Part shown: positions 1,910 to 53,826 of the stretch, one piece after another
How the letters are laid out: every line of letters begins with the position of its first letter
Numbering within the stretch: the stretch's first letter is position 1
IMG/VR virus record: IMGVR_UViG_3300024908_000010
Span: 1-53,866 of that record
Reading direction: 5' to 3' (one strand)
DNA length: 53,866 nucleotides
Origin: a virus
Lineage: Duplodnaviria; Caudoviricetes
The notes under the pieces: model-generated
What the model was told of the DNA's origin: nothing
Databases searched by the model: none
What the model saw: the letters and a program-made list of their open reading frames with translations, nothing else
Position numbers and translations under genes: made by a program

Positions 1910-4900
1910 TTAATTTGATTGCTTATCAAATATATTGATGTATTTATCGTAAATTTTTTTCTCTTCATCTTCAAGCTCATTAATCATTTTAATTTTTTCA
2001 CTAAGCGTTAAGTTTTCATTAAGCTTGATAGCGCCAATAGCATCACGCTTACCGTTAGCCATTTTCAACATCCTATCAGACATTTTTGACATTTTAATCA
2101 GCATGCCATTTTCATTTATAAAATCAGCAATAGCCGCTGTATCGTGTGCTTTTTTTGCCAAAGCTAATTGATCTGCAGCCATATCTGCTTCATTTTTTCT
2201 TTCCCAGAAAGCGGAACGTGAATCTGTTACGCCTGTTTCGCGTGCAAACTTACGTGCTATTGGAATGTCTTTAAGGTTCTGCGGAGATACCCCTTGCGCC
2301 CCCTGTTTAACGATATTTGCAGAATCAAAAGCGAACTGCCCCGCGCCACCCGTTAGAGATTTAACCCAGAATTTTAATGTTTCTGGCGATACGTCCACCA
2401 CTCCAGATTTAAAATTACTGCCACCTGTAAAGCTATTAAGCTTTTCAGATACGCCATCATATAAACTACCCTGCGTACCTCGATTCATTAACTGTGAATC
2501 TGGCGTGGCAGGGTTCCATTTTTTAGGTGTTATTGGTCGACCAAAGCTATCCTCATTTACGCCTGGTGCTAACGCCATCTTTGGTAATGTTGGCAGTAGC
2601 TGGAATAAACCATTTTCGCCTTCCATTGGGTTCCCAACTGGCGAGAAGTTTGCAAACAAACTAGATGCAACACGATTGCCAAGCTTGCCATAGTTAGCGC
2701 CATCTTGCGTAGCATCTGCCATGACATTACCTAAAGACCAAAATACACGGTAGCCATAAGGCAGCGTCAATGTAAATTGCGTGCCGAACATATCAAACAC
2801 AATGTTACCGTCCTTGATATAGTCTGGCGTTTTATTCCACTTATCTTTATCTTCATCATCGCCATTCAGCGCCATCATTGCCATTGTGAAGGCCATAGCC
2901 GTCATGCCGCCAGCAAGCGCTTGAGCTTGGCGTTTGTATGGTGATTCCATTAATGCTTCTTGAATTAACTTAGTGCCTTGTACGGCTGGATTAAAGAACA
3001 GGTAGAGCGCACCTGCTGCGTTTGATTGCTCACCTTTACGGTTGAAGTTCATCAAGTTTTTTGCTTGTGCCGCAGACCTGCCCTTGCTTATGCCGTTTTC
3101 GGTTAATGTTTTATAAGTCGCTACACGTAAAGCGTTTTCAGTAATGGCGTTAATACTTTCCATCAGTTTCAAAAAGTGCCCAATAATCGGTATCTTTTTA
3201 AAGCCTGCTGAACCCGCTTTTAAACTCGCCATTGTATGTGCTGCTTTTGCACTTTTACCGTTAGCAATATTTTTCTCATAAACCGATTTATAAGTCGCTA
3301 AAGCCCCTTGATACTCATTGTAGCTAGATTGAATATCATTGCCTATACGCTCTAAATCACTTAGATATGCGCCACCTGTAGAGCCGCCTTGTGCTCGATA
3401 TTCATTAACTAAAGCAGATGAACCTTTATTTTTAAAGTGCTTAACCAACTCTTTAACAGCCGTTGGATAGTTAGCAAATATTTTTGCAGTAGTTACGCCA
3501 CCTAAATTGCCTGTTAATGTAATCGCGCCTTGAATCGAGTCACGAATCGGGTTGGTAAAAATAAAGTCTGGGCTGTAACCAGTATAGGCTTTTGATAGCC
3601 AGTTATTCACTTCACGGCCTGCCGAAAATATGGCATTCAAATGCTCAACGCCCATGTTTTTATATTCACGCGCTGCAATCTCGTCATTAATTTGCAAGCG
3701 TATCGCATGCCCCCCCACGTAAACCGTCACTTCGTTATCAGCTAATTGTGGTGACGCTTGTAACATCACGCGCACAGGGTCTTTTGTTTGATCAACGCTA
3801 AAGTTTGATTTAGTTTGGCCAAACGCTACTTGTGATTGAATGTACAGCTCGGCTTCTTTTCGCGTGGCGAATGTGGCGGTATCAATACCTTTATTAGCCA
3901 CCACATAAGCTGTTTCTCCTTGCTTTAATACTTGGCGCTTAACGGGCTTATCAATCGTGATAATGTCATCGTTTTTGGCCGCTAATGCAAAGCGAATTAA
4001 TGCTTTTCCTACACGGTTTTTTTCGTCCAATGTAATAGCTGATTCGTGATCGCGCAAAATATTTTCAATAATCGCTTCATCGCGCAACCCATGGCCTAGA
4101 CGTTGTTTGTTTCTAACACGAACATTTAAGCCTTGTCCAGTGCCGGTGGTCGTGCCAGCATCGTCACCGCCCTTAACTGGCACATACATTTCATAAGCGC
4201 TTTCCCAAGCCGCCACCAGTTCGGGAGTCAATAACCCAGAATCGATTTTTATTTTTTTAGTTTGCTCGGTAATTTTGCGCCAATCGTTAGCGATGCTTTT
4301 CAATTCCACAAAGTTTGGCAACTCTTTAAAAGCGTCCATTGCGTCTTGCGCTTCTGCATCGCTTACGCCAAATGCAGTTGCATCTTCTCTGTTCTGCAAC
4401 TGTCTAGCGCGTTTGTTTGCCTCTGGCGCATGTTGCGCTTTTAGAAAATCGCCTATTTGTTCCATGCTTAAATCAGCCGCTTGTGTGCGCTTGATTAACG
4501 GCTCTACTTGGCCTTCTCTAAAGTCCTCTTTACGGGTAGATATACGCCCACTCATGAGCGTTTCCGCTAAGTAAACGTCTGCGGCTTCGTCTAATTCCAA
4601 GCCTTTTTCAACTAGAAAATCTTGCAAAACTTTAAAACGGTTAAACTTATCTTGGCCTATACGTTGAATCTTTTGCGCTGTGGTTTCGGCTGGTATTTCG
4701 TTGTTTAAATTGCCTTGCGATGAAGTGCGACTAAAACGAATATCAGGATTAGTAGGGTTGAAGTCGCCGTTGTTGCCGAACCATGCTTTGAATTGTGGTG
4801 TTTCAGTTTGAGGCGTGCTGCGTGAGTAGAACGTGCCTCTTAAGCTGTCTGCCAGTCCGCGATTCTGTAACTCGCGCACATACGTGCCCAGTATTTCACT

Positions 4901-7900
4901 CCTTCTTTCGCGGCTCTTTTCGCGTAGAAAGGTATTGTAGAAAGCTGCTCTCTTTGCCGTGCGGATTCCTGCGCGATAAGGATTGCTCGTTTCAGTGGCG
5001 TTGACGGTAGCATCTTGTGAACTTCCATCAACAATTCGTGATCCACTGTCGCCATCTGTTCTGGCGTAATAGTCGGATAACACGCGCTCAAAATCATCAT
5101 TGGTGAATTGCTCACCATTGATGGTTGTAAAGTCTTGTGTTGTTGGGTCAAAGATGACATTTTTAAGTTCTGGTAAATTAGTAATTGCACCGTGATAAAC
5201 AGTATAAATCAGTTCTTTAATGTTGTGTGCATCGTCACCTGTTTTCCAGTTGATTTTACGCACTGATTCGCCAAATTCTTTTGTTTTTTCATCGAATGAA
5301 TAGTACAAATCTGGGTCTGTTTGAGCCACATGAGGCGCAATGTGCTTAGTAGTTCCGTACTTCAATGCACTAGACAGCATATTCTCTGCACGGCGGTAGA
5401 AAGCCTTGGCGGTTAAACCAAGCGGATCACCAATAAACACCTTGTCATTGTTGTATGCATAAGCTGCGGCCAGTGAATAAATACGGCTACCAATATCTGC
5501 GCCTGAACGTAAGCGAGATACGTTAATCCAAACCTCATTGCCCTTTTCATAGATAACGGCTGAGCGATATTTAGCGTTTGGTAAAAACACCTCCCAAGCG
5601 GTATCAGCGCCATCTAGTTTTGTTTGTGACTTACCAAATGGTTCAACACGGAATTGCGTGTTCATATCGCTGGCAATATCAGCTATATCTTTTGCATCAG
5701 ATGGGGCGTTCTCAAAGAAATCTTCGTTTCTAGCAGTGAACTCAAGCGCAGCGGTTAGGAATGTGTCGCCTTCTGCTTTTGATGGTACGCGGTTGTTGCG
5801 GCTGTAATACATATTATTGCTTGAGATAAGGCTAACAACATCCTCGCCCTTAGCATAGCGTGAAGCCATTGAAACAATATCTCTAACATCAACATCAGTC
5901 ATCTCAACATTGAATACCAGTTTTGCGAATGCCTTGATGCCATCAATTAAGCGCTGCCATATTGACCTAACAACAGGTGACATTTCAACATCTTGGTCGC
6001 CACGCTCAGCGATAAAAGCTAAAACTTCACCAGCCATTGCGGTATCGTCAATATCCGGCTGCGATTGTTTAACATCATCCCAAATGCCGCGAATGTACTT
6101 ATTGCCTGCTTTATTTAATGTTTTAACTTGCGTTAGCAATTTAGGGAATAAAGTTTTATCAACTTCATTCAGCATGCTCTCAACCGACATATGCCCGATT
6201 GCTTCATGCGCAAACACTTCTCTTAAGCGCTCCTCACTGTTAATGGCATTGGTATTAATCCATATTTCACCATTTGAATATAGGCCTTCCACGTCATTGA
6301 TTCTTACGCTCAATGCGGCCTGAATGTTTTGTTCGCTAGGTAACTGAGTGACCAACTCTAAGCGCTCAATGAGTAGTTGTTCGCTTCCGTTAATTTCCTC
6401 AATAATGCTTGAAGGAATTGGCAGTTTAGAATGATGGTCAACTAACTTTACCTTAGGTATGCCTTTGTGTGACTTCTGCAACTCATCAATAATTGATTGT
6501 GCTTTTTCTTTGTCCATGCCACGGTATGGGGTGGCATTACTACGGCTAAACATCACCACGTTGCCACTGTCGGTTTCTTTGGTTTTTAACTCGCCAAACA
6601 ACGCATCGAACAATGGATTTATTTCCGCTTGCTCTGCTCTTGTTGGATATGGGTATGGATCTTCAAATGCGCCAAAATCTTTAGCTGCTTGGTTAGCAAT
6701 CTCGTAAACGTCCTCATCTTCAATGTTGGCTAAATAGTCATTAGATCTTCCAGCGTCTTTAGACTTAGCAATTAAATATGCTTCAAACGCTCTCGCAGCC
6801 AACTCTTCTGCGGTACTCCAATAATCATTGGTGCGCGTATTGTCAATTTTAGATGAGCGTGTGTAATAGTCTGATTTGCGAATAGCATCCATCAGATTCT
6901 TAAATGCACTTAGCACTTCTGGCCTGATAGATTCATCCAGCTCAAAGCCCTGCCCTGCTTTGTATGTACGCTTTTGTTGTGGCTTCTGTGTTAGGTATTC
7001 ATTGTCACCACGGGCTTTTGAAAAGTAATTGTCCATGGCATGAAACCACTCATGGCCCAAGCTACCAAACCCATTCACTTTAGTGAGGTTAATCACCACT
7101 TCACCACGTTCAAAATGCGCTGCTGCTGGATTTTTCCCACCTTTGCCACGCGCACCAAAAGCCAAGCCTAAAGTGCCGTTTAATGAGATAGCGCGAGGCG
7201 GTACGCCAATAATGTTCGCAAGATCAAGCAATGCGTCATAAGCATTGTTTAAATCTCTTGGTCGGCGTGATTGCTCTACATAGTTACCAAACTGTACCCC
7301 TCTAAAGCCAAACTCTGCGGCAAACTTCTCAGGTGTTACATCTTGTCCTAAGCGATAGTCAATTCCAACGCGAGGGTTGTTTGTACTTCTGCGCTCTGGG
7401 CGCACGTTTTTACGTTGCTCAAGCAACTGCAACAACTCAGCCTCATTGTCTGCATAATATTGGAACGCCTCTTTAGGTGATTTAAACCCACCTTTAAGGT
7501 CAATATATTTATTTGATGCGACCTTTTTACCAATGACTAAATCGCCAGTGGCGGTAACTCGATAAACGTCCAATTTCGTTTTACGTTCTGTACCTTCTGG
7601 TGCAACTTCAAGCTTAATGCGTAATGCATCTACGGCACTTTGTCGGTCATTGAAATATTCACGCTTGCCATTTGGAAACTCTAGCGCAGTTTTCTTGCCT
7701 GCTTCTGCAACGCCTTTATCAAATGAAGTCCATCCACCAGTAATTTTGTAGCCTTTGGCAGACTTAAACGCTGGATACCCAATTTCACCATACAGATTGA
7801 TTCTGTCGGCAAATTTATTATTTACATTGCTCGCGCTTAATATACCTAATACATCATCAATGCTTTTGCTTCCGTTGATTAGTCCATTTGAAAACTCGCG

Positions 7901-10900
7901 CAAAGCAGTAAGCTCACTTACCCATCTACGTACCTTGCTTGGCATTTTAGGTTTGCTAGGAATTTCATCTCGCATCGCTTTGATTGCAGCAATGGCTTTA
8001 ATATCCATGCCACTAGCAATTAGGTTATCGTAGTCAGGTTCAGGAAAGTGTTTAGATAAAGTAATGTCTTTGGCATCAGCAGGCAATTCATCGCCCATGG
8101 CTTTCTGATAGTTTTTCCAAAGGTCTTTTTTAGCGCCTTCTAGCTTCTCGCCGAAGTCATCAATGCGGCCTACTGGCGCTTGATCTGCCACATCCTCTTC
8201 TGCCGCTTCGTTTGGGGCACCATAAGCATCAGCCACCTCATCAGCCGTGACTTTACCTTCGCGCACATCTTTAATGGTGTCTAGCTTTTCCTTGCCTTTA
8301 ACGCCTGCGGCGGTGAGCGCTTCTGCGGCTTTGGCTACTTCGTCATTTGCTTGACCGTTGCTTGATTGATTGGCTGTATTTTCTGCAACATCCTCGCCAG
8401 TGCTAGCTTCTGTATTTGACTGTTGCTTGATTGGCGCTGAGAACAAATCTTGCGCCCCGGCTGCTGCGGCCTGATCTGCTTCACTGTTTGAACCAGTTAG
8501 AGTGAATGTATCTTGATTGTCATTGCCTGAATTGCGCTTAGCGTCTTTTGCACGCTCGGCATCAGCAACGGCTTGTTTGGCGGTAGTATTGTCGCCTAGT
8601 AGGTCGGTTTTACTGTCTGTTACTTCCGCTTGCTGACTGGCGTTAGTTTGCGTTGTTGTTGTACTTCTTTCGCCGCTTCCAGTATCGCCATTCTCGCGCT
8701 CGGTGTTAATGACGCGAGCCTCTGTAGCAGTTTCTCTTTCCTCGTTTGTGGCTTGTCTGAGTTGCTCATTGATTTCATCCTCTGTTAATAGTTCTGCCGC
8801 CTCTTGAACATCGCTTTCAGCTGTTGCTCCTGCGTCTTGGTAGTATTGATTCGCTTGAGCCTCTTCAACAACTGCATACGGCAATACTGATTCACCGTTT
8901 CGTATTTTTTCCGAAAGGTAATCATACGCCTCTGTTGAATCAAAAGCATCATCATTAGCGCCGTTAGATTCAAGGCGCATGTTGTATGGTAGGTAATCGA
9001 CTAAATCACCTGATTCAATCAAGCCCTTGAGTGAACGGTTAGATGCTTGTTTGAATACTTGGTTATATCCACCAGGCGCAAAGCCTTTTACTTCGCCTGT
9101 AACATCTTGTTTTTCAGATAGCTTAATGCCGCCAATGTCACGTAGGGTTGCTAGTAGCGTCTTAGGTTTGTATTGTTTAGGTGATTTTGGCTTTTGTACT
9201 TTAGATGTTGTAGCACCACTCTCAACGGTTGAGCTTGGGAATTCTTTAACATCATCAAGCAACTGAGCAATAGGCGCATTCAAACGGATTACATCAACAT
9301 CGCCGCCTTTGTTTAATTTAGATAGCCATTGATGATGGCCGTCTAACACATGGTTGTCAGATGAAACCAAGATTGAACGGTCACCGCCTGCATACTTGCT
9401 TGCCTTCTTAACCTTGGCTTCTGAAAACTCTTGCTGTGTTGGTTTAAGTGATGATGCTGGTACCGTTTCTTGCGTGTGGTCCACGCCTCTAGCATTCAAA
9501 AAGTTAACCATCGCGCCACGGTGCTCTGCTTTTACTTGCGGCATTTCTGAGCGTGGAATGTTTAGCGTGCCAGATTCAGGACTGAATGCGGTCCACTCTT
9601 TGTTAATTTTCTCACCAACATGTACGCCTTTTACCTTTTCATCGACACGTTCCGCTGTTGTGTTTACGCTATCGACATTAGTAATGCCACGTAACTTCAA
9701 CTCTTCATCAATTTGGCTAATGACTTTTGCATCAGTGGTCATGCTGCGCATCTTCGGCAAGAAGTCGTCTGTGGCTTGGGCGAATGGACGTGATACTGCA
9801 TCTTCGCCATTAAGTATAGCTATTGCATCGTTCCCTTGTATTCCATTTCCATTAAGTTGATCGCTTCCGCTGCCTTGTGCAGATGCTTCGGTAGAGTTAT
9901 CAATTGGTCCTGTATCGCTCCGTCCTGCAAGCTGATTAGGTAAATCTCCCAAGCTTCCTTGTATGTTATCACTTGAGCCTGTAATGGTTTCGTTAGCCAG
10001 CTCGGTAGTGGCATTAGTCGTATCGCTGACATTCTCATCCCCTAAAATATCGCTTGCTGGTATGGCTTCTGTGGCGCTTTGCACTTCTGCAAGTAAGGCA
10101 TCATCACTGATTGAATTTAACAAGCCTGTTTGTGGCACGGGTATATCAATTGCTTTTTCAGCAAGCGCAATAGCGTCATCAATACTTGCATCGGGATTGG
10201 TAATATTGGCAAGCGCTGTATCTGCCTCGGCTTGTTTAGCGTCAAACTCAACTTGTAGTGTTTCAGCGTCAATGTCGCCTTGAGTGTTACCATCAACACG
10301 GACATTTGAAGTAACTTGCTTAAAAGATCCAGCACCTTGCAACGCGCCGACAACTGCACCTGGCACGCCTGCTGCTGCCGCTTCTAATAACCCTTGTCTG
10401 TTGATTTGTCCAAAGTCTATTTCTTCTCGATTGCCAAATGCGTATTCGCCAGTTTGTACGCCTAATCCTTGGCCACCACCTTCAACATATTCTTGCAAAG
10501 ATTCTTTACCTGCAGTTTTTGCTGCATTAGCAAGGCGATTTACTGATGATGAAACGCCACTATTCCCTCTGGCAATTACGCCTTCCGCACCGCCCTTAGT
10601 AATCTTATTGCCTAGTAGCGTAGTAATACCAGCAATTGCCGCTGCCGTGTATTTAGTGCGTGCGTCACCTTCTGCCTCGCTAAATGCGCCGCCTGCGTTT
10701 ACACCAACGTTCATGGCAATAGCGGCTTGTGTGCCTTTTTCACGGCCATACCTTGCAGCTAGCGTTTTGATTGACTCTGCATTACGCCCAGCATATTTAG
10801 CAGTTAAGTTCGCTGCTGCCTTTTCACTGGCTAGTTTAGTCACGCCTGCACCAACGCCACCACTTGCTAACATAAAGCCAAGTGAAGGGATTGCAACATC

Positions 10901-11752
10901 AGATAAAACAGATGGGTTTGCAGTTAAAAACTCTGTTAGTTGAATGCCTGTACCATTTTTTACAATGTTTTGTAGCTCAATAGACTTCTGGCGCAACTCT
11001 GGCGACTGCTTATCTGTCTGGTACTTAATGGCATCATCGAAGCCTTCACCCATCGACATAATCATGTCACCCACTACTGGGATGTAATTCGTGCCTAACC
11101 CTAAAATATCTGTTGCCATCTTCCCTGTTGTCGGGGCGATCTTAGCTACTGCCCTTACGGTATCAAGTGCGTAATCAACGACCTCTCTCTGTGGCAAGCC
11201 GTTTGCTATGGTCGCAATGTCGTTTCCGTCCTCGCCTTGCTCAACCATGTTTTTAGCTGTGTTAAAGTCAGCATTTGAGTTCTTCATGACTTTGTTAATT
11301 TTCGCTTCTTTGCGATTATCACCAATGCCATCTTCTTTAATTTCTTGATATTGTTTATCTACCTCTGATGCGACATTGCCTAGCCAATCTTTGCGATTGG
11401 AAAGTTCTGCTCTTTTTTGTGGTGTTGCATTTTCGTAGGAAGACTTAACTTTATTGAAAGTTTGGTCCGTGACTGGTGCGCCTTTGCGCTCAATGGCACG
11501 GCGATCATCAATAACCTTTCCATCCATGCCATCAACAACTGACTTGTATTTGCTATTTGGTGTAATAGCTTTAACAATATCGTCTTTTACTTGAGATAGG
11601 AATGATTGAGGCTTAGGCGATTCCGGCTGTGGCGCTTGTGCAAAATCCGCATCTATCTGATCCGCGATTGAAGGCATTGCTTGCGATATTTCTGCCTCGC
11701 TCATGCCGCCTGGGAATGTGATTGATTTACCGCGATATACTACGTTAGCCAT
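1910..11752 (-). CDS. Giant polyvalent / DNA-ejection protein (ParB-like, LPD5, LPD1, zincin metallopeptidase, GNAT-like, LPD38-like regions)
   Basis: 3280 aa; motifs VLDGHHQW, IDDFGEKLEGAKKD, FRGVQFGN..HEWFHAMDNYF..EELAARAFE, HEAIGH, GSRIY, C-terminal LPYGY..NEDSFGRPI; last gene of the virion block. Confidence 0.85.
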   Translation of the reverse strand: MANVVYRGKSITFPGGMSEAEISQAMPSIADQIDADFAQAPQPESPKPQSFLSQVKDDIVKAITPNSKYKSVVDGMDGKVIDDRRAIERKGAPVTDQTFNKVKSSYENATPQKRAELSNRKDWLGNVASEVDKQYQEIKEDGIGDNRKEAKINKVMKNSNADFNTAKNMVEQGEDGNDIATIANGLPQREVVDYALDTVRAVAKIAPTTGKMATDILGLGTNYIPVVGDMIMSMGEGFDDAIKYQTDKQSPELRQKSIELQNIVKNGTGIQLTEFLTANPSVLSDVAIPSLGFMLASGGVGAGVTKLASEKAAANLTAKYAGRNAESIKTLAARYGREKGTQAAIAMNVGVNAGGAFSEAEGDARTKYTAAAIAGITTLLGNKITKGGAEGVIARGNSGVSSSVNRLANAAKTAGKESLQEYVEGGGQGLGVQTGEYAFGNREEIDFGQINRQGLLEAAAAGVPGAVVGALQGAGSFKQVTSNVRVDGNTQGDIDAETLQVEFDAKQAEADTALANITNPDASIDDAIALAEKAIDIPVPQTGLLNSISDDALLAEVQSATEAIPASDILGDENVSDTTNATTELANETITGSSDNIQGSLGDLPNQLAGRSDTGPIDNSTEASAQGSGSDQLNGNGIQGNDAIAILNGEDAVSRPFAQATDDFLPKMRSMTTDAKVISQIDEELKLRGITNVDSVNTTAERVDEKVKGVHVGEKINKEWTAFSPESGTLNIPRSEMPQVKAEHRGAMVNFLNARGVDHTQETVPASSLKPTQQEFSEAKVKKASKYAGGDRSILVSSDNHVLDGHHQWLSKLNKGGDVDVIRLNAPIAQLLDDVKEFPSSTVESGATTSKVQKPKSPKQYKPKTLLATLRDIGGIKLSEKQDVTGEVKGFAPGGYNQVFKQASNRSLKGLIESGDLVDYLPYNMRLESNGANDDAFDSTEAYDYLSEKIRNGESVLPYAVVEEAQANQYYQDAGATAESDVQEAAELLTEDEINEQLRQATNEERETATEARVINTERENGDTGSGERSTTTTQTNASQQAEVTDSKTDLLGDNTTAKQAVADAERAKDAKRNSGNDNQDTFTLTGSNSEADQAAAAGAQDLFSAPIKQQSNTEASTGEDVAENTANQSSNGQANDEVAKAAEALTAAGVKGKEKLDTIKDVREGKVTADEVADAYGAPNEAAEEDVADQAPVGRIDDFGEKLEGAKKDLWKNYQKAMGDELPADAKDITLSKHFPEPDYDNLIASGMDIKAIAAIKAMRDEIPSKPKMPSKVRRWVSELTALREFSNGLINGSKSIDDVLGILSASNVNNKFADRINLYGEIGYPAFKSAKGYKITGGWTSFDKGVAEAGKKTALEFPNGKREYFNDRQSAVDALRIKLEVAPEGTERKTKLDVYRVTATGDLVIGKKVASNKYIDLKGGFKSPKEAFQYYADNEAELLQLLEQRKNVRPERRSTNNPRVGIDYRLGQDVTPEKFAAEFGFRGVQFGNYVEQSRRPRDLNNAYDALLDLANIIGVPPRAISLNGTLGLAFGARGKGGKNPAAAHFERGEVVINLTKVNGFGSLGHEWFHAMDNYFSKARGDNEYLTQKPQQKRTYKAGQGFELDESIRPEVLSAFKNLMDAIRKSDYYTRSSKIDNTRTNDYWSTAEELAARAFEAYLIAKSKDAGRSNDYLANIEDEDVYEIANQAAKDFGAFEDPYPYPTRAEQAEINPLFDALFGELKTKETDSGNVVMFSRSNATPYRGMDKEKAQSIIDELQKSHKGIPKVKLVDHHSKLPIPSSIIEEINGSEQLLIERLELVTQLPSEQNIQAALSVRINDVEGLYSNGEIWINTNAINSEERLREVFAHEAIGHMSVESMLNEVDKTLFPKLLTQVKTLNKAGNKYIRGIWDDVKQSQPDIDDTAMAGEVLAFIAERGDQDVEMSPVVRSIWQRLIDGIKAFAKLVFNVEMTDVDVRDIVSMASRYAKGEDVVSLISSNNMYYSRNNRVPSKAEGDTFLTAALEFTARNEDFFENAPSDAKDIADIASDMNTQFRVEPFGKSQTKLDGADTAWEVFLPNAKYRSAVIYEKGNEVWINVSRLRSGADIGSRIYSLAAAYAYNNDKVFIGDPLGLTAKAFYRRAENMLSSALKYGTTKHIAPHVAQTDPDLYYSFDEKTKEFGESVRKINWKTGDDAHNIKELIYTVYHGAITNLPELKNVIFDPTTQDFTTINGEQFTNDDFERVLSDYYARTDGDSGSRIVDGSSQDATVNATETSNPYRAGIRTAKRAAFYNTFLREKSRERRSEILGTYVRELQNRGLADSLRGTFYSRSTPQTETPQFKAWFGNNGDFNPTNPDIRFSRTSSQGNLNNEIPAETTAQKIQRIGQDKFNRFKVLQDFLVEKGLELDEAADVYLAETLMSGRISTRKEDFREGQVEPLIKRTQAADLSMEQIGDFLKAQHAPEANKRARQLQNREDATAFGVSDAEAQDAMDAFKELPNFVELKSIANDWRKITEQTKKIKIDSGLLTPELVAAWESAYEMYVPVKGGDDAGTTTGTGQGLNVRVRNKQRLGHGLRDEAIIENILRDHESAITLDEKNRVGKALIRFALAAKNDDIITIDKPVKRQVLKQGETAYVVANKGIDTATFATRKEAELYIQSQVAFGQTKSNFSVDQTKDPVRVMLQASPQLADNEVTVYVGGHAIRLQINDEIAAREYKNMGVEHLNAIFSAGREVNNWLSKAYTGYSPDFIFTNPIRDSIQGAITLTGNLGGVTTAKIFANYPTAVKELVKHFKNKGSSALVNEYRAQGGSTGGAYLSDLERIGNDIQSSYNEYQGALATYKSVYEKNIANGKSAKAAHTMASLKAGSAGFKKIPIIGHFLKLMESINAITENALRVATYKTLTENGISKGRSAAQAKNLMNFNRKGEQSNAAGALYLFFNPAVQGTKLIQEALMESPYKRQAQALAGGMTAMAFTMAMMALNGDDEDKDKWNKTPDYIKDGNIVFDMFGTQFTLTLPYGYRVFWSLGNVMADATQDGANYGKLGNRVASSLFANFSPVGNPMEGENGLFQLLPTLPKMALAPGVNEDSFGRPITPKKWNPATPDSQLMNRGTQGSLYDGVSEKLNSFTGGSNFKSGVVDVSPETLKFWVKSLTGGAGQFAFDSANIVKQGAQGVSPQNLKDIPIARKFARETGVTDSRSAFWERKNEADMAADQLALAKKAHDTAAIADFINENGMLIKMSKMSDRMLKMANGKRDAIGAIKLNENLTLSEKIKMINELEDEEKKIYDKYINIFDKQSN

Positions 11753-31142: not shown

Positions 31143-31169
31143 GGTGTTAACCTTTATTCAATGTGGACT

Positions 31170-31358
31170 TTAGGCATTAACCTTTACCATATCCTTGCCA
31201 TTCCAAACTAAAGTCACACGATTAGTTACCTTGCCGCAGTGAACACAAGTATGCGTTCGATCATACTTAGTGACGATTTGAGCATTAATAGATGGCATCC
31301 ATTTATCTTCTATGCGTATTGAGTGAAATCCTAAGTTACAAATAAATTTTCTAATCAT
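31170..31358 (-). CDS. Small Cys/His zinc-binding hypothetical protein
   Basis: ICNLGFH..CVHCG; AAGGA RBS. Confidence 0.6.
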   Translation of the reverse strand: MIRKFICNLGFHSIRIEDKWMPSINAQIVTKYDRTHTCVHCGKVTNRVTLVWNGKDMVKVNA

Positions 31359-31385
31359 TGCACAGTCCTTTTATAAATTGTCATA

Positions 31386-32178
31386 TCAATACCCAACTTC
31401 GCTATCAAGTACACCAAATCCAGATGAAGGAGCAGTCCGTTTAGGTGTGTTTACTTTGGCGTGGCGTAGCATCATGACCGCATATCTAACCGCACTCAAA
31501 ATATCATCAAACTCTTTAACTATTTTACCATCCTTGCGATGATATAAGCGGTACTCTTCAAAGTAACCGTCCAAATGTGCGAACACTTTAAACCGCCCTG
31601 TTTGCATACGGTCTAATATTTCAAGCACACCTGCCTCAACGCCATTACCGCCGGTGCCTTCTTCTTCACCTTTTTGTGGTGGATGAGTTGCTTTATCCTT
31701 AAGCATATTCACGCCTAAGTTACGGTACTGTTGTGCAATGGCTTCGCCAGAACCTTTGTCGTGCTGCAATCCATCATGAGGCCATGCAACAGGAATCCAT
31801 TTACCCCTTGCGTTGATTGAAACAGAATGCACGGCTGGCGTTTGCTCACTCAATCTGTGAATGTCATATACATAAACAATGTCTGCATCTCTATCCCATG
31901 CAATCCAACCTGCTGCAGTCGGGTGATCCCAACCGAAGTCCAAACCTGCAATGCGTGGCCAGTGTGCAGGGATTGAGAAAGGCTGCACTTTAATCAACTC
32001 TTCATCTATTGTAAAAATACGTCCTGAACCTAGCACTGGAATCCCCCTTGATCGTGCATCACGTAGATGCGATGGTGTCGAATCTAACAATTCTCTTTTA
32101 GTTTTCTCGCTGAGGTGAGGTACATCGTCAATTCCACCCTGCCATAACAAGGTACTTCGATTCAGAAACTTTAGGCAT
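31386..32178 (-). CDS. terL: Terminase large subunit, C-terminal part (lid + RNase H nuclease); frameshifted near 32130
   Basis: DDVPHL..RDARSRGIP..GLDFGWDHPTA..WPHDG..DDILSAVRY; upstream MPKVSESKYLVMAGWN* lies in another frame. Confidence 0.85.
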
Positions 32179-32238
32179 CTGATCCCCCTGATATGGCAAG
32201 GCGTGTTTGGCCTGCTCCATTCATGTAGTTGGCTTTCA

Positions 32239-33003
32239 TTATTTAAGCTTCATTCCCTTTGGTATGAACTGCATTACTGTATCTGTCATGCCTTCTAGTG
32301 GTGTAAATGTCATGTAAATTAAACCTTCTGTTGTTGCTGTTCTTATCAAGCATTCGCCATATATATCCATTGGCGGCTCTTCGTCCAACCAAATGCCATC
32401 TTGTTCAGTGCCTTCAAAAGCACCCCTGCCTTGTTGATATGATTTAAGGCCAAGCAAAGAGAAGCCTCCATTAACATGTTTAATCTCTACCTTATCAATC
32501 AAATCACTAACGCCTTGCTTCCAGCTAATATCACCGATGCATTCACCTGGTATTAATCCAGTGCCGCTTAATCGCTTAGTTGACCCACTGCCTTGCACCT
32601 TGCCAAATAACTTAGCTTGCACAATGTCGCGTGTAGTTTCATTCGTCTTACCAGCCGCCCAAAAGCTAACTGGCGCATCCCACATCGCACCATTCCACCA
32701 TGGAGGATATAACCCTGTTAAATGCAATGCCGTTTCATAACCTCCTGCGCCTTCTGTCTTACCGATACGATTTGCCGCCATAAAACAACGCTCTCTGTAT
32801 ATGTCGCCAGCCTCGAAAAACTCCATGTGCTTAGGATATAACTCACGGCGCAATGGGCCTTCTTCTGGGTAATATGTATAAAGTTTTCTTCTACTTAGCC
32901 TTCGTAGCTGCTCTTGCTGAATTTTTAGCGCTTCCAATTGCAGCTTGCGCAGCTCTGAGGGCTTCTTGGTTAGCGTTGTATCGCTGTTCAAGTTCATCGT
33001 CAT
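32239..33003 (-). CDS. terL: Terminase large subunit, N-terminal ATPase part
   Basis: YPKH, Walker A AANRIGKT, Walker B IWLDEE, coupling motif TFTP; stop shortly after. Confidence 0.9.
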   Translation of the reverse strand: MTMNLNSDTTLTKKPSELRKLQLEALKIQQEQLRRLSRRKLYTYYPEEGPLRRELYPKHMEFFEAGDIYRERCFMAANRIGKTEGAGGYETALHLTGLYPPWWNGAMWDAPVSFWAAGKTNETTRDIVQAKLFGKVQGSGSTKRLSGTGLIPGECIGDISWKQGVSDLIDKVEIKHVNGGFSLLGLKSYQQGRGAFEGTEQDGIWLDEEPPMDIYGECLIRTATTEGLIYMTFTPLEGMTDTVMQFIPKGMKLK

Positions 33004-33673
33004 TTAACCTTTCAAAATCACCAGGGGAGCCAGTTTCTTTGCGCTCAATGAACATTCCTAGATGCTTAGCAACATTCTCTAGCGCAGAACTCTGGTCAAT
33101 CATCTTTATTTCAAGACCTTCTTTAGTGACCTTAACCCCTGCATAAAGCATTGCTGTTTGTTCATCAATGGTGCGTGTGTCATGTGGCGTGACTTCACCA
33201 GTGCCGCGACCAAAACATTTAGGACACTGTGCATGTGGAGTATGTGTTGGGTTAAATCCATAGCCACCGCCATTGTCTGGTATAACATGCACCTCATCTG
33301 GATTTGCTTCGGCATAGTTCACAGCTTCTGCATAGGCTGATGTAAATTCATCTTCATCAATCCATTGATACAAATGTGATTTACCATAGCAATAACGGCA
33401 AGCGCAGCGCCTATACTCAATTAGCTTGCGCGGATCTGCTGTTGCAATCTTCCACCAGCGATCAAGCACCATGTCTTGAGTGATTTCAGTACGTTTTGAG
33501 CGCTCATCTATTCGCATGGCGATATATTCAGAAACCTTAACATTGCTTAACAATCTTGAAGCCTGAACTTCTGCCGTCTTTTCTGAATACCCACAACGAA
33601 TAGCAGCCTGCTTACCATTAAGATCAACAAGGTACTCATCACCAAATCTAATTTGTTTTTCATTTAAACTCAA
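32891..33673 (-). CDS. terS: Terminase small subunit with Zn-finger insertion
   Basis: KQIRF..YLVDLNGKQAAIRCGYS..ASRLL; CRYC..CPKC; LAKHLGMF-like end; TTG start after GGAG. Confidence 0.9.
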   Translation of the reverse strand: MSLNEKQIRFGDEYLVDLNGKQAAIRCGYSEKTAEVQASRLLSNVKVSEYIAMRIDERSKRTEITQDMVLDRWWKIATADPRKLIEYRRCACRYCYGKSHLYQWIDEDEFTSAYAEAVNYAEANPDEVHVIPDNGGGYGFNPTHTPHAQCPKCFGRGTGEVTPHDTRTIDEQTAMLYAGVKVTKEGLEIKMIDQSSALENVAKHLGMFIERKETGSPGDFERLNDDELEQRYNANQEALRAAQAAIGSAKNSARAATKAK

Positions 33674-33778
33674 AGCATCACTCCTGCATTGCTTGCCTGC
33701 AGCGCTGCACTGTTTCAATAGTTGTGTTTAATACATATTCAGCAGACAATTCTATTTTTTTAGGCGTAAGCTCTGCCA

Positions 33779-35912: not shown

Positions 35913-36400
35913 GCAAACCTCAACATCTTCTCTACTACGTTATTCACCTCTTCGCGCCCTGCGTATGTGCTTAAAACATCAGCAAGCAATACATCAAGGC
36001 AACGGTTATAAACTTCTTCAAAGTCTGGTTGCTCCATCCTTGCAAAGCTGATTGACTTAGGTTCTAACCTTAAACGACCATCTAGCCCGAATGTCTGCTC
36101 ATAAAACCCTGCGGCAATCAGTACATCAGCGCGGAATATTTCAAAGTTCTTTTGCACTTCGCGGCCTTTGTAGCTTTTATGCTTGCGCTGTGGCTCCCAT
36201 GCATCAAAGCCTAGGTTCAACATTGCGAAAAACTTGCGATGATGGCGGCTATTGCGTGGTAACTTTGCCTCGATAGAACACAACTCACCCTCTTCAAGTC
36301 TGCTTAAGCGTGTCTTGAAGTTTTTGTAAGCAACCTGATCGGCTTCACTCATTCCGCGAAGTGAGCCGTCTGGTTGTTTTACTAGGGTGATGGTTGCCAT
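35909..36400 (-). CDS. DUF1367 (NinB-like) protein
   Basis: PRN..HRKFFAML..AGFY..PKSISFARM..FEEVY. Confidence 0.85.
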   Translation of the reverse strand: MATITLVKQPDGSLRGMSEADQVAYKNFKTRLSRLEEGELCSIEAKLPRNSRHHRKFFAMLNLGFDAWEPQRKHKSYKGREVQKNFEIFRADVLIAAGFYEQTFGLDGRLRLEPKSISFARMEQPDFEEVYNRCLDVLLADVLSTYAGREEVNNVVEKMLRFA

Positions 36401-37260
36401 TAGTCAGTACACCCACAATCCGCAAGCTCAACATCCTCGTAACCGTAAAAGTCACCTTGGCTTACTGCCATTTGTTTAATTTCAAAGTAGCTAGGCCTAT
36501 CTTTTCTAAACTTACCTGTCTTTGCGATAAGTTCTTTTTCAGAAAATGGCCTTGATTCTTGCTCGATCCACCAGTCTGCTAGGCTTGGCGCTTCACTTAC
36601 CAATGAGAGCGTTTGTCCTGCGCCTTTTAAAAAGCACAAATCACAATTGCCGTGCATAGTTTTGCCGTTCATGTTTGGCAAGTTGAGATCAAACGGCTGA
36701 CCTTTCCAAAACTTTCCAACATCTGCGGCCGTTATTCCGATGCTTGCCAATGGTGCGTATCGTTCAAATGGTTCTGATGATGGGATTGATAACTTAGCCA
36801 CACGGCTTGGCTCGTCCGATCTAAAACCAATGGCAACATCCCAGTTCTTCCAGCCAAGAACTTGTTGTGCATATAGCTTCATTACGCGAATTTTTAATTC
36901 AATCGTGCAAAATCGCATTGTTGGATTAGGCAGATAGTTCTTATGCGTAATGAGGTCGGCAAACGGCTCGCCATTTCTGCTTGCTGTTTCGTAAGTCACT
37001 TCACGCCAGCGCTTTTGTGGCTCTTCGTGTGATTGATACTCAAGCCATACAATCGGCACATTCCAGCGTTTTGAACACTCATTAACAAAGTCCAATGTTT
37101 GCGGCATTTCTTTACCTGTGTTTGCAAATACAACCTTTACAAAATCAGGTAATACTCGATCATGAGCATCAAGCAACATATCAAGCATCATTCCGCTAGT
37201 GCGGCCACCGCTAAAACTAAGCATAGTTGGTGATGTTATTACTAAGCCCATACCTACCAC
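36400..37260 (-). CDS. PAPS-reductase-like adenine nucleotide alpha hydrolase
   Basis: PP-loop SFSGGRTS, FANTGKE, RFCT.ELK, GNCDLCFLK, C-terminal CGC. Confidence 0.85.
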   Translation of the reverse strand: MVGMGLVITSPTMLSFSGGRTSGMMLDMLLDAHDRVLPDFVKVVFANTGKEMPQTLDFVNECSKRWNVPIVWLEYQSHEEPQKRWREVTYETASRNGEPFADLITHKNYLPNPTMRFCTIELKIRVMKLYAQQVLGWKNWDVAIGFRSDEPSRVAKLSIPSSEPFERYAPLASIGITAADVGKFWKGQPFDLNLPNMNGKTMHGNCDLCFLKGAGQTLSLVSEAPSLADWWIEQESRPFSEKELIAKTGKFRKDRPSYFEIKQMAVSQGDFYGYEDVELADCGCTD

Positions 37261-38040: not shown

Positions 38041-38636
38041 GCCGCCTGCTCTTTTTGCATACTCTCAATCAGTTCTATGCGAGAACCAATCCAAGCCATT
38101 ACAGTTTTACAAAGAGATATGAATTGTTCATCCGTTAAATCTCGCTTTGCTAAGTTCACTTCTTTTGATAGCCATTGCAGATTTTCAATTGCATCTAAAC
38201 CACCTTTTGCTTTTGGCAATTTATGGTCAAGTTGAGCTGTTCTATCAAGCCTTAATCCACTAAGCGCACATAATCCCTTTTGGCTTTTCCATAAAGATGC
38301 AATTTGTTTTGTAGTAGCTTTGTTTTCGCCTTTCAATTTCATTGCCTTAACCCAAAAGAATCTTTTACTTGCGTATTCACGCATTTTCTCCCTAGCTTTT
38401 TCTGGGTTTTTTGCTCTTAAAGAATTTTGATAATTTCTAATTGCTTGTGGGTTTTCTTCACGAACTTTCTTCATGTGCAATCTTTTTCTTTCTCGCGTTA
38501 CTTCACCGCCTTCTTTATAGAGTTTTCTTTGATATTCTCTTTCGCAATTTTTGCACTTTCCAATTCGATAACCTTTTTTATGAAAACGAAATTCAATAAG
38601 GGGTTTTTCTACTAAACACTCTTTGCAGATATACAT
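38037..38636 (-). CDS. HNH endonuclease
   Basis: CKEC..CKNC; LDHKLPKAKGG..ENLQWL..VN..K. Confidence 0.85.
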   Translation of the reverse strand: MYICKECLVEKPLIEFRFHKKGYRIGKCKNCEREYQRKLYKEGGEVTRERKRLHMKKVREENPQAIRNYQNSLRAKNPEKAREKMREYASKRFFWVKAMKLKGENKATTKQIASLWKSQKGLCALSGLRLDRTAQLDHKLPKAKGGLDAIENLQWLSKEVNLAKRDLTDEQFISLCKTVMAWIGSRIELIESMQKEQAA

Positions 38637-39898
38637 AAATCCTCCACCAATTGAATCCTAGTTCCCAACCAAAACATCACAGGCACTGCCATCGAGTTAC
38701 CCAACGCCTTGTAACGTGCTGAATCACTTGCGCCTGGTATGTTCGTAAAATCATCGCTAAATCCTTGAAGGCGCTCACACTCTATTGGCATGAGGCGGCG
38801 CACTTGCATCTTGTGAAATAGTTGCTGGTCTGCACCTGTTGATAGAGTAAATGCTGAATCTTCTGCGCCTAAATAACCTTTGCCGCCGCCTTCACATCCA
38901 CCTCTGACTTTAAAAGTCAGAGGTGCTGCAACGTGCTGAAACAAGACATTCTCGCCTCCGTTATTTCTACCTTGGGCAAAAGCAATGTCTGATACGCATG
39001 GATCTTGAGTGCCGTGGACTACATGAGAAACCGTATGAACATTGTCAAAGTGACCTCCGTGCATCGGTATTAGATTTGATGTTTCTGGGTCCTGATTCTG
39101 GCAACCAGCGCCCCTCGCTGTTAGGCATTTGGCTACTTGGTACGAACAACCCCCCCCCCCATTGATGTGCTGGTTTTCTAACCCTTGCTTAGTACCAAAT
39201 GAGGCATTTAAAGTAGGTGCAACTTGAGCAGGCCATGTGACACAAAAATCTAATTCGTTAGCGTTTCCTGCTGGTCTGTTGAGGCCGCCACCGTTTGAAG
39301 TGAGTGTTCCAGCAATTTCGGTAACTTCTTCCCTCTTTTCTCTGCTCGGCGCAGAATTCCCCTGCAAGCTGTCGCGCTCAAAAAGTACCGCTGCGGCACT
39401 TCCGAAGTCACCAAGACATCCGACAACGAACACACGTCTGCGGCGCTGTGGCACTCCAAAATATTGAGCGTCAAGAACCCTGTAGGCGAACCCATACCCG
39501 AGTTCCCCCAACATAGCGAGGAAGCTTCCGAAATCCCTTCCACCGTTACTGGACAAGACACCTGGTACGTTTTCCCAAACCAACCATTTGGGCTGTAGTC
39601 GTTTAGCAAGCGCACCAAACTCAAGCATGAGGTTTCCTCGTGGGTCATTAAGGCCTGCTCTAAGTCCTGCAACCGAGAATGATTGGCATGGTGTTCCTCC
39701 AACAAGAAGCTCAATTGGCTCATAATCATCTTTCTGAATAGTCGTAAAGTCGCCATGTAACGGCACGTTTGGATAGTGGTGCGCCAATACCTCGCGTGGG
39801 AATTTTTCAATTTCACTGAAAAAAGAAGGCTTCCAACCTAACGGATGCCATGCGGCAGTAGCAGCTTCAATGCCTGAACATACAGAACCGTAAATCAT
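38612..39898 (-). CDS. C5 cytosine DNA methyltransferase (alpha polypeptide)
   Basis: Motif I SVCSGIEA, IV GGTPCQ, VI ENV, VIII QRRRR, RRL.P.E.ERLQGF, X YKALGNS. Confidence 0.95.
   Translation of the reverse strand: MIYGSVCSGIEAATAAWHPLGWKPSFFSEIEKFPREVLAHHYPNVPLHGDFTTIQKDDYEPIELLVGGTPCQSFSVAGLRAGLNDPRGNLMLEFGALAKRLQPKWLVWENVPGVLSSNGGRDFGSFLAMLGELGYGFAYRVLDAQYFGVPQRRRRVFVVGCLGDFGSAAAVLFERDSLQGNSAPSREKREEVTEIAGTLTSNGGGLNRPAGNANELDFCVTWPAQVAPTLNASFGTKQGLENQHINGGGGCSYQVAKCLTARGAGCQNQDPETSNLIPMHGGHFDNVHTVSHVVHGTQDPCVSDIAFAQGRNNGGENVLFQHVAAPLTFKVRGGCEGGGKGYLGAEDSAFTLSTGADQQLFHKMQVRRLMPIECERLQGFSDDFTNIPGASDSARYKALGNSMAVPVMFWLGTRIQLVEDLCISAKSV
39150..39160. repeat. G11 homopolymer (C11 on + strand) inside the MTase gene
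   Basis: Direct count of 11 C. Confidence 0.9.
39250..39723 (-). CDS. Nested alternative-frame ORF: M.EcoHK31I-beta-like MTase subunit
   Basis: CSLSDVL..VPQRYFLSATACRGILRRAEKRGKKLP..L matches the recalled beta-polypeptide pattern; start uncertain. Confidence 0.75.
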   Translation of the reverse strand: MSQLSFLLEEHHANHSRLQDLEQALMTHEETSCLSLVRLLNDYSPNGWFGKTYQVSCPVTVEGISEASSLCWGNSGMGSPTGFLTLNILECHSAADVCSLSDVLVTSEVPQRYFLSATACRGILRRAEKRGKKLPKLLEHSLQTVAASTDQQETLTN

Positions 39899-52436: not shown

Positions 52437-52613
52437 ATGAATTTACTAAAAACAGAAGAGACTGCGAAAAAGGTAGGCGTGTGTGTAGATCACTTTAGAA
52501 AGATCATCAAGCATCAACCAGATTTTCCAAAGCCAATTAAGCTTACGCCCAAGGCACACCCAAAATGGAGTGAAGAAGCAATTGAAGAATATTTAAAAAA
52601 GAAAGCGGCCTAG
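52437..52613 (+). CDS. xis: Excisionase / AlpA-family protein
   Basis: LL..EETAKKVGV..PDFPKPIKL..W....IEEY; convergent with integrase. Confidence 0.85.
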   Translation: MNLLKTEETAKKVGVCVDHFRKIIKHQPDFPKPIKLTPKAHPKWSEEAIEEYLKKKAA

Positions 52614-53581
52614 TCTAATTTTGAAACTAAATCACTTGCGGCTTTGTTGTAATAAACCAGCAACATTTTCAAATCTTTGTGACCGACAACGCGCGCCAAT
52701 TCAAGCACTTCTAACTTAGATGCCAGGCGCGTAATAGCTAAATGCCTAGTGTCATGGAAATGCAGATCGTCAATAGCAACTAGCTTCTTAGCCTTTCTAA
52801 ATAGACTATCAAGCTGGCTAGTATTGATATTAAATACATACGTTTTATCAAGCCCTTTGCACTGCTCAAGTATGGCCATCGCCGCCTTGCTCAAAGGCAC
52901 AGACCTAATGCCGGTATAAGTTTTAGAATCATTTATCTTCGCAACGCGATCATTTATATCTGACCATTTTAGATTGCAAATTTCTTGCGCACGAAAAGCT
53001 GTTTCAATTGCAAACATAAAAGCAGCACCAACTCGGCTAGTTATAGTAGTTAGAATTGCATTGTTAGAATAGTTAAGTGCAAAACATAGCCTGTCTATTT
53101 CGTCATCTGTAATGATTCGATCTCTAGGTGGCTGGCCTTGTGGCTTCTTTAGCCCTTTCATTGGATTATCTTTCAGGTACTCCCACTCAGTAATAGCAAT
53201 CTGTAAGCAATGACTTAATAAAGCCCACTCGCGTAACACCGATAAAGCACTAACTTCTTTAAGCCGCCTGTCGCGCCATTCTGCAAATGTATTCTTAGTT
53301 AAATCGCCTATCTTAATCTTGGCGACTTCATCGTTAAGAAACTTGTTGATGCGGATTGTTTCCCATCGTGAGCCTTTTTTCTTAACAGAAACTTCATCAC
53401 GGTACTTTTCTAGGAGCTTGCCGAATGTAATCGATGGCGTTTTATTATCTTTGCCAGCCTTAAGAGATTCCTCCCAGACGTAGCCTTCTGCTTTCGTTGC
53501 GAAAGTTTTTACTTGCGCCTTGTAATTAACAGTTACTTGAAAACGCCACTTGCCGGATGCGGTCTTTGTTACGTTGGCCAT
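52610..53581 (-). CDS. int: Tyrosine integrase
   Basis: ETAFRAQEI (R), SKT (K), HFHDTRH, VGH, LVYY (Y). Confidence 0.95.
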   Translation of the reverse strand: MANVTKTASGKWRFQVTVNYKAQVKTFATKAEGYVWEESLKAGKDNKTPSITFGKLLEKYRDEVSVKKKGSRWETIRINKFLNDEVAKIKIGDLTKNTFAEWRDRRLKEVSALSVLREWALLSHCLQIAITEWEYLKDNPMKGLKKPQGQPPRDRIITDDEIDRLCFALNYSNNAILTTITSRVGAAFMFAIETAFRAQEICNLKWSDINDRVAKINDSKTYTGIRSVPLSKAAMAILEQCKGLDKTYVFNINTSQLDSLFRKAKKLVAIDDLHFHDTRHLAITRLASKLEVLELARVVGHKDLKMLLVYYNKAASDLVSKLD

Positions 53582-53739: not shown

Positions 53740-53758
53740 TTTGGTGCGAAAGGAGAGA
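53740..53758. repeat. Right att core
   Basis: Identical to 715-733. Confidence 0.95.
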
Positions 53759-53826
53759 CTCGAACTCTCACGCCTTACGGCGCTGGAACCTAAATCCAGT
53801 GCGTCTACCAATTCCGCCACTCTCGC
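53742..53826 (-). tRNA. tRNA-Leu (anticodon TAG)
   Basis: 85-nt cloverleaf GCGAGAG..CTGGA-TT-TAG-GT-TCCAG, long variable arm, GTTCGAG, CCA end. Confidence 0.97.

Follow-up and report, generated by a model that had tools for sequence, protein, structure and literature searches.

To our knowledge, very few sites are known in bacteria and their phages at which ribosomes shift into the +1 frame or make a short hop, and the gene for release factor 2 (RF2, prfB) dominates the understanding of them. Here we analysed the large terminase (TerL) locus of the IMG/VR virus record IMGVR_UViG_3300024908_000010, which was taken over its full length of 53,866 bp (the window; linear class, CheckV completeness estimate 92%, GC 42.5%). 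This terminase is naturally split into two genes, and the stretch of about 110 nt at their junction is, with a probability of roughly one half, a recurrent recoding cassette with a candidate +1 shift or short hop at AAU-UGA-C. The RF2 shift site reads CUU UGA C. According to the review of Atkins et al. (PMC5009743), the C after the UGA weakens termination, and a Shine-Dalgarno (SD) sequence 3 nt upstream stimulates the +1 shift. The T4 gene 60/MobA system is described as a gene split combined with a 50-nt translational bypass (bioRxiv 10.1101/2022.08.31.505936; PMC5009743). The terminase of Streptomyces phage phiHau3 carries two 10-nt inserts led by UUA, for which a bypass was proposed with partial experimental support (PMC10732093), and terL of the Jug phages is reported to be split by group I introns (PMC12880540). 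In the open-access literature searched (supplements aside), no account was found of a two-gene TerL with overlapping stop and start codons, or of the cassette.

The terminase locus and its split

All features of the terminase locus lie on the minus strand of the window. An earlier note, made from the letters of this DNA, had described TerL as encoded in three pieces, and the pieces were found where it had placed them (stop at 32239, ATG at 32178, second break at TGG AAT TGA C). Piece 1 (gene 1, 32239..33003) encodes 254 aa, ends in TFTPLEGMTDTVMQFIPKGMKLK (..FIPKGMKLK) and is closed by the TAA at 32241-32239. It matched Pfam Terminase_6N (E 2.7e-13, profile positions 1-150 of 215) and spans the N-terminal ATPase part from the Walker A strand to the TFTP motif, with AANRIGKT and TFTP visible. 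Piece 2 (codons 1-16 of gene 2 plus the UGA, 32128..32178) begins at an ATG of its own (32178-32176), as had been noted, 4 nt behind the SD sequence GGGGGA (32183..32188), which is paired within a hairpin described below. It reads MPKVSESKYLVMAGWN up to the TGA at 32130-32128 and stands in the frame of gene 1, past three stops (TAA, TGA, TGA). Piece 3 (31386..32129) is the rest of gene 2 in the +1 frame, where GAC GAT GTA CCT CAC CTC gives DDVPHL from 32129. It matched Terminase_6C (E 7.1e-22), its first 50 residues matched Terminase_6N at profile positions 169-213, and it comprises the ATPase lid and a linker followed by the RNase H-like nuclease domain. From 32249 the +1 frame is open, and the gene callers take the TTG at 32150 as its start; the beginning MLWQGGI that results is out-of-frame sequence, and the suspicion in the earlier note that this start is artefactual was borne out. 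No second copy of gene 2 and no other terminase nuclease gene were found in the window.

The fused homologues P0005 and P0001 read ..FLPNG..SSKVSDSKYLVMAGWDDVPHL.. across all three pieces, each of which is conserved TerL sequence, as had been claimed. Homologue P0005 also matched the nuclease of P22 gp2 (4dkw, E 2.1e-44), in an alignment that runs only from GSGRIF onward. Because Terminase_6N spans pieces 1 and 3, and 4dkw aligns only from GSGRIF, the breaks lie inside the ATPase fold and not between domains.

The sequences compared indicate that TerL in the window phage is two polypeptides and that this split is clade-wide. The closest relative, and the one close relative among the metagenome matches listed, is L082 (a 54,854-bp contig), which has a gene 1 protein identical to that of the window. 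Its junction reads ..AAG CTT AAA TAATG CCT AAA.., with stop and start overlapping in TAATG, and its 262-aa gene 2 begins MPKVSESKYLVMAGWNDVPHL and is 91% identical in nucleotides to gene 2 of the window. The TAATG overlap is also present at the same gene 1 stop in L001 and L041. After nine incomplete loci were left out of the 160 related loci compared, and five apparent splits with stops outside the gene were discarded as false calls, 17 of 151 loci were split and 134 were fused. The split junctions take several forms (TAATG; ATG a few bases before TGA; GTGA; GTG behind AAGGAGG; a stop with a same-frame GTG after it), and the frame of gene 2 relative to gene 1 is -1, +1 or 0. The variety of junction forms and relative frames fits separate initiation at the first break, and not a conserved frameshift or bypass; nor is this break damage.

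A length-matched protein search with piece 3 returned many nuclease-only proteins of about 262 aa; 49 of the 120 cluster representatives listed start MP[KEQAR][VI]..[KR]YLV.AGW..VPHL and 58 lack such a start. The window locus shares the feature that marks the split clade, a gene 2 with its own start and the conserved MP..[KR]YLV.AGW after motif III. As in the P22 gp2-type terminase, it has Terminase_6N and Terminase_6C, that is, the ATPase and the RNase H-like nuclease domain, with a nuclease that matches 4dkw through P0005; unlike that enzyme it is not a single polypeptide, being in two genes split within the ATPase fold. Among cultured phages identity did not exceed 54%, and in the rows inspected the gene looks fused, judging by abutting matches and not by open reading frames (ORFs). 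The statement in the earlier note that P22-like TerL is continuous thus stands for these cultured relatives and fails for the clade of the window.

TerL is a frequent target of selfish inserts, the group I introns of the Jug phages being a published case (PMC12880540). Many close gene 1 relatives (P0007, P0075, P0004, P0012, P0036 and others) carry inteins with LAGLIDADG_3, Hint_2, Intein_splicing and Hom_end matches, and in P0007 and P0075 the intein follows AANRIGK, i.e. it lies in the Walker A loop. The window differs from such genes in that its 61-nt insert is too small to splice and has no Rfam match, the stop and start of its relatives overlap directly, and RNA-library contigs retain the insert. 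A sister terminase group is split at the equivalent position: in 13 of the 120 representatives (a subset of P0142-P0237; L114), gene 2 begins ..M[TS]I[DE]DAEHY (..TIDDAEHY), and one member, from Candidatus Propionivibrio aalborgensis, is named 'Large terminase protein (fragment)' by NCBI.

The two products were also modelled as a complex. The model of gene 1 with gene 2 scored 0.81 and the best control 0.12. Of 80 solved complexes 58 reach the mark concerned, against 2 of 110 mismatched pairs, and the pass may come from likeness to solved single-chain terminases. The runs had at least 81% of contacts in common and a partner pLDDT (predicted local distance difference test) of at least 78. Residues 7-14 of gene 2 contact residues 71-77 of gene 1, the strand leading into the Walker A loop. 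The model supports the view that the two products rebuild one TerL fold; the best reading is that gene 1 supplies most of the ATPase fold and gene 2 its last core beta-strand, the lid and the nuclease. A clade with a two-polypeptide TerL, split within the ATPase fold, bears on packaging-motor assembly. It also bears on TerL annotation and on the use of the gene as a phylogenetic marker, and completeness tools may score such genes as 'broken'.

The junction cassette and its recurrence

Compared with L082, the window junction contains two insertions. The first is a 61-nt spacer (32179..32239), located between the TAATG and the CCT codon, absent in L082 and opening with the old start ATG. This ATG, overlapping the TAA of gene 1, begins a 22-codon leader ORF (32171..32239) that reads MKANYMNGAGQTRLAISGGSDA and ends in its own TAA 5 nt past the gene 2 ATG; the leader ORF presumably relays translational coupling across the spacer. 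The second insertion, TGAC (32130-32127), follows the AAT of codon 16, creates the candidate recoding site AAU UGA C (32127..32133) and throws the remaining 246 codons into the +1 frame. The two insertions together make 65 nt, which agrees with the alignment summary of a 4,005-nt X17 contig, where 45 letters correspond to 110 in the window.

Codons 2-16, between the insertions, differ from L082 at 10 of 45 nt; nine codons are touched and all the changes are synonymous. Downstream in gene 2, 65 of 738 nt differ, 47 of them at third positions, with 13 changes in 246 aa, and in gene 1 only 18 of 762 nt differ, 17 at third positions. The divergence of codons 2-16 is higher than that downstream (p 0.007) and that of gene 1 (p 0.0002; Fisher). 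The nearest differences flanking this region lie 40-42 nt off on either side.

The inserted and recoded parts fold together. An 81-nt RNA hairpin (32129..32209) is predicted to enclose the SD sequence and ATG of gene 2; in it, codons 8-16 and the U-UG of AAU-UGA are paired with the spacer's 3' half. A 119-nt stretch folds at -37.8 kcal/mol (z -4.0; none of 200 shuffles was as stable), with pair probabilities of 0.93-1.0 in the main stem, and the L082 junction gave no significant fold (z +0.48). Seven of the 10 variant positions are paired, and at five of these seven the L082 base would not pair, so the synonymous codon choices and the spacer fit each other. The earlier note had pointed to another hairpin, in the gap between the first two pieces; that small fold was seen in the local fold only and was no better than shuffles (z +0.88), and the significant hairpin is the one at 32209-32129.

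Directly 5' of the shift codon lies the SD-like run GGGUGG (32134..32139), so that the second break, with its G-rich run, is as the earlier note had it. The 12 nt 5' of the site pair with the 16S 3' tail at -8.3 kcal/mol (76 relatives: mean -4.0, strongest -8.5). In the window type, and also in the P0285 variant, which was deduced from protein, only GGG can encode the Gly before Trp, and this gives the GGGUGG that is present in only three of 76 in-frame relatives; L082 has the synonymous GGUUGG at this place.

Searches for further copies of the DNA gave little. Rfam returned no family near threshold for the spacer, and no other copy of it was found in the window or in the fetched related loci. 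Exact and degenerate junction patterns returned from viral contigs either nothing or only an unrelated gene reading ..SGIDDVPQ.., and the 12 matches of the junction 19-mer to genome contigs were chance matches with unrelated flanks.

Protein sequences nevertheless point to a break that is recurrent and not private. The out-of-frame start (M/L)LWQGGIDDVPHL (LLWQGGIDDVPHL) was found in three clusters formed at 90% identity; these share 72-79% identity with one another, and each also has in-frame members. In the window's cluster (12 members), P0249, P0250, P0253 and P0258 are out of frame, on 6, 10, 2 and 1 contigs respectively; seven 262-aa members occur on 9 contigs, the three that were read all start in frame, and one further member is of unassigned type. 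In the P0123 cluster (9 members), four start LLWQGG (P0123/242/244/245), four start from a downstream Met and one is in frame. For the four called from the downstream Met, a break farther upstream is implied. In the P0122 cluster (15 members), P0268 and P0275 start LLWQGG or MLWQGG, and three of the other 13 were read (P0122, P0271 and P0274) and are in frame. Counted by contig, the out-of-frame type compares with the in-frame type as 19 vs. 9 in the window's cluster and 11 vs. 1 in the P0123 cluster; in the P0122 cluster it makes up 2 of the 15 members. Identity of the out-of-frame peptide implies that about 25 nt of DNA are identical too; in this stretch, five synonymous sites distinguish the window from L082.

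A fourth lineage is represented by P0285 (61% identical to piece 3), which reads ..RPSISSWPGGTSDDVPHL and starts ..CLKYRRPSISSWPGGTSDDVPHL. Read one base earlier, its deduced coding sequence would allow only M-P-[KQE]-[IV]-x-x-x-K-Y-L-V-M-A-G-W, which suggests the two-frame layout of the window, its junction being 3 nt longer and its synonymous codons different. The 12 proteins of the out-of-frame type retain every family-invariant column past residue 16, and no decay was seen in the sequences examined. P0127 (245 aa) is 98.4% identical to P0260 (262 aa) and is called only from the V of DVPHL; it may represent a fifth lineage broken at this position. P0007, one of the intein-bearing gene 1 relatives, and the out-of-frame gene 2 protein P0275 both come from a 5,157-nt Logan contig, possibly the same one.

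The earlier note had held that the second break would be a private mutation or a sequencing error if close homologues all read in frame. L082 and P0121, which lack the insertion, do read AGWNDVPHL; because the break recurs in other lineages, this does not refute recoding as that note had worded it. Nor are the breaks a sequencing artefact. Of the 22 public runs listed, 14 contain at least half of the sampled words. Contigs of X7 and X12 (identical to the window) and of X11 (15 differences) span the TGAC site without gaps, those of X11 and X12 covering the window in part, and a second X17 contig, 86% identical, covers 32038-32218 ungapped. The same protein start was found in JGI, ENA and Logan assemblies. 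In X11, from another habitat and another year, third positions account for 10 of the 11 differences listed in piece 3 (p 1.3e-4) and for all seven listed in piece 1. Contigs from the X12 RNA library keep the cassette unedited.

Candidate recoding at AAU-UGA-C and the alternatives

We favour, at about even odds, a recurrent cassette composed of the 61-nt spacer (leader ORF and new SD/ATG), the recoded codons 2-16 and the 4-nt UGA-C insertion. The hairpin would mask the SD sequence and ATG of gene 2 until it is opened by a ribosome arriving from the TAATG: having finished gene 1, ribosomes would go on to the leader ORF, unfold the hairpin and initiate again at the ATG of gene 2, so that gene 2 translation would be coupled to that of gene 1. 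At AAU-UGA-C, a fraction of the ribosomes would shift by +1 or hop 4 nt onto GAC, aided by pairing of GGGUGG with the anti-SD sequence and by the weak UGA-C stop, and make the full-length gene 2 product; the others would release a 16-residue peptide. The cassette would in this way set or regulate the amount of the nuclease-bearing subunit, and would have moved between, or been retained in, several lineages. Because the first strand of gene 2 is the main contact with gene 1 in the complex model and there is no second gene 2 copy, a working terminase should need the +1 frame to be joined to codons 1-16. If AATT is read in one step, the result is an open product of 263 aa with ..AGWNDDVPHL... The predicted junction peptide is AGWNDDVPHLSEK for a +1 shift and AGWNDVPHLSEK for a 4-nt hop, in which the Asn tRNA would land on GAC (with G-U at the first position) and restore AGWNDVPHL exactly.

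The likeness to RF2 lies in an in-frame UGA-C near the gene's start (here codon 17), a G-rich SD-like run on its 5' side, continuation in the +1 frame and recurrence in several lineages, with each side of the site conserved in its own frame (three clusters and P0285; codons 2-16 synonymous; third-position bias in piece 3). Unlike RF2, the P-site codon AAU cannot re-pair well, the site is at the 3' foot of a long hairpin, and it is a polymorphic site in a phage packaging gene with no link to RF2 autoregulation. The GGGUGG of the window (-8.3 kcal/mol) abuts the shift codon, and the RF2 SD sequence stands about 3 nt 5', a difference in register that is argued from the RF2 pairing. With gene 60/MobA, as those sources describe it, the window shares an essential phage enzyme encoded in two genes and a frame-disrupting insert a few codons into the second, as well as a stop after the take-off codon, an SD-like element, RNA structure and presence in several lineages as if mobile. 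It differs in that the insert is 4 nt and not 50, AAU and GAC are only near-cognate and do not form a matched pair of take-off and landing codons, the two genes are not separated by a homing endonuclease gene, and the split is far older and wider than the cassette. As in the published description of phiHau3, a temperate-phage large terminase is broken by very short inserts that relatives lack, the flanks being contiguous there (L082 has no TGAC and identical flanks), the site stands behind a Gly-Trp motif, and a plain +1 shift would add residues to a conserved junction. The phiHau3 report concerns another terminase family, another site and a rare UUA codon tied to the bldA tRNA, whereas the window has a UGA stop in place of UUA in the A site and its recoding is proposed from sequence.

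Several other routes through the UGA were considered and rejected. Selenocysteine would call for structure 3' of the UGA, and none is present (z +0.99); the only tRNA in the window is a host-type tRNA-Leu, and not a phage suppressor reading four bases; and reassignment of the stop codon is no help when it is at the UGA that the conserved frame changes. With one +1 shift at AAA-UAA into the long open +1 frame, unrelated sequence would take the place of the conserved KYLVMAGW strand.

A number of observations weigh against recoding by a cassette. In the +1 frame AAU would re-pair with AUU, which has a middle mismatch, so that the P-site codon is a poor one for re-pairing. In 143 of 143 homologues that show the motif, exactly two residues separate the W from [VA]PH, and the +1 product W-N-D-D-V-P-H adds one. 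The closest relatives, among the matches listed, work without the cassette, and the phage is integrated, so its metagenomic abundance may come from the host rather than from viable virions. The cassette DNA was read in the window copy only, the other copies being deduced from protein N-termini and from the contig alignment summary. The third-position bias of the flanks may predate the arrival of the cassette if it moves by recombination, the hairpin could be a by-product of an inverted duplication, and the RNA-library contigs may be DNA carry-over.

The strongest competitor, a serious one though we consider it less likely, is that the cassette allele is defective: the 4-nt insertion would kill gene 2, and the allele would persist in a prophage of successful hosts or through helper phages and spread by recombination. 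The integrated state, with the integrase beside a tRNA-Leu, favours this, as do the poor shift codon, the invariant spacing violated by the +1 product, the in-frame closest relatives (among the matches listed) and the co-occurrence of both alleles in X17, where the L082-type contig has a depth of 48.9 and the cassette type 6.5. Against it, the break occurs in at least four lineages (57-79% identical), 12 proteins retain all their invariant residues, contigs with the out-of-frame type outnumber those with the in-frame type in two clusters (19 vs. 9 and 11 vs. 1), and codons 2-16 stay synonymous in frame 0 with the rest conserved in +1. A rough look at the ORF map revealed no long ORF that is obviously broken elsewhere in the prophage, and a lethal allele would need repeated spread with no benefit. 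It is improbable that TerL functions in three pieces without recoding, with the 16-mer released at the UGA and the nuclease part restarted in +1 by the terminating ribosomes at UUG 32150 or AUU 32132. The +1 frame is indeed open from 32249, the callers place a start at TTG 32150, the stop and AUU overlap (AAUUGA), and the clade already tolerates one split. On the other side, no SD sequence lies at a usable distance before the UUG or the AUU, and residues 2-15 are at the heart of the modelled interface, so that the main anchor would be missing from the nuclease part. In-frame starts at that place occur in none of the homologues, and all 49 in-frame starts begin with MP or MT ahead of the strand.

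The full model of the earlier note is a single polypeptide, made by a 72-nt bypass from AAA (32244-32242) to AAA (32172-32170) followed by the +1 shift. The matched AAA codons 72 nt apart, with a stop after the first, do exist, and we nevertheless regard this route as very improbable. In the relatives, L082, L001 and L041 among them, gene 1 ends at this same TAA, and gene 2 has an ATG or GTG of its own as start (overlapping in these three), in three relative frames; the gap is a lineage-specific 61-nt insertion in an existing intergenic junction, and piece 2 has its own SD sequence and ATG. A sequencing or assembly artefact deserves almost no credence: the window is a metagenome assembly, but identical or near-identical contigs come from independent 2017 and 2024 runs, the protein start is the same in JGI, ENA and Logan, and the ungapped X7, X11 and X12 contigs together with the three clusters and P0285 settle the question of a private mutation or read error that had been raised earlier.

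If recoding does take place here, the locus offers a natural site with a non-slippery P-site codon, a 5' hairpin, a relay ORF and presence or absence among near-identical phages, and thus a ready comparative system for what makes ribosomes shift at a stop. More tentatively, the junction could be a self-contained recoding module that gene conversion carries from the split terminase gene of one temperate phage to that of another, a miniature of the gene 60/MobA kind with no endonuclease gene of its own. Such a module may persist by blocking a neighbouring nuclease (e.g. the L082-type endonuclease VII-like enzyme) or by tying the supply of the nuclease subunit to the termination capacity of the host, and the 16-residue strand peptide could cap the gene 1 protein and give nuclease-free motor subunits.

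The phage and its packaging genes

The window is a temperate phage in the integrated state. Its integrase (52610-53581) adjoins a host-type tRNA-Leu (anticodon TAG, 53742-53826), the sole tRNA in the window, at the attachment end. This tRNA-Leu probably marks the attachment site, and the record is probably a provirus excised from a longer contig; one gene 2 protein identical to that of the window is carried by a contig of 106,891 nt. Further temperate-phage genes are a CI-like repressor, a RecT/exonuclease pair and a DnaD-like loader.

The packaging genes follow one another on the minus strand in the order small terminase, terminase pieces, two small ORFs and portal (30800-28563). The small terminase (32891..33718, minus strand; Terminase_2, E 4.2e-35) is upstream of gene 1, and the longest reading of gene 1, from 33003, overlaps its end by 113 nt (32891-33003). 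The 254-aa gene 1 protein is absent as an exact entry from the protein collection, so gene callers picked another start.

Elsewhere in the window, a single ORF of 3,280 aa (1910-11752) lies next to an HNH endonuclease gene (978-1709; phrog_59, E 2.7e-21), and the early region includes a PAPS-reductase-like gene and a large DNA methyltransferase (36400-37260 and 38612-39898). Directly 3' of gene 2, L082 has two ORFs of 77 aa and 109 aa (3256-3825) that match phrog_1035 (endonuclease VII-like) at positions 64-116 and 122-212, and by these matches its nuclease gene is itself in two pieces. At the corresponding place in the window (31150-31415) the endonuclease VII-like gene is absent, and an unrelated 62-aa ORF with a CxxC motif is found.

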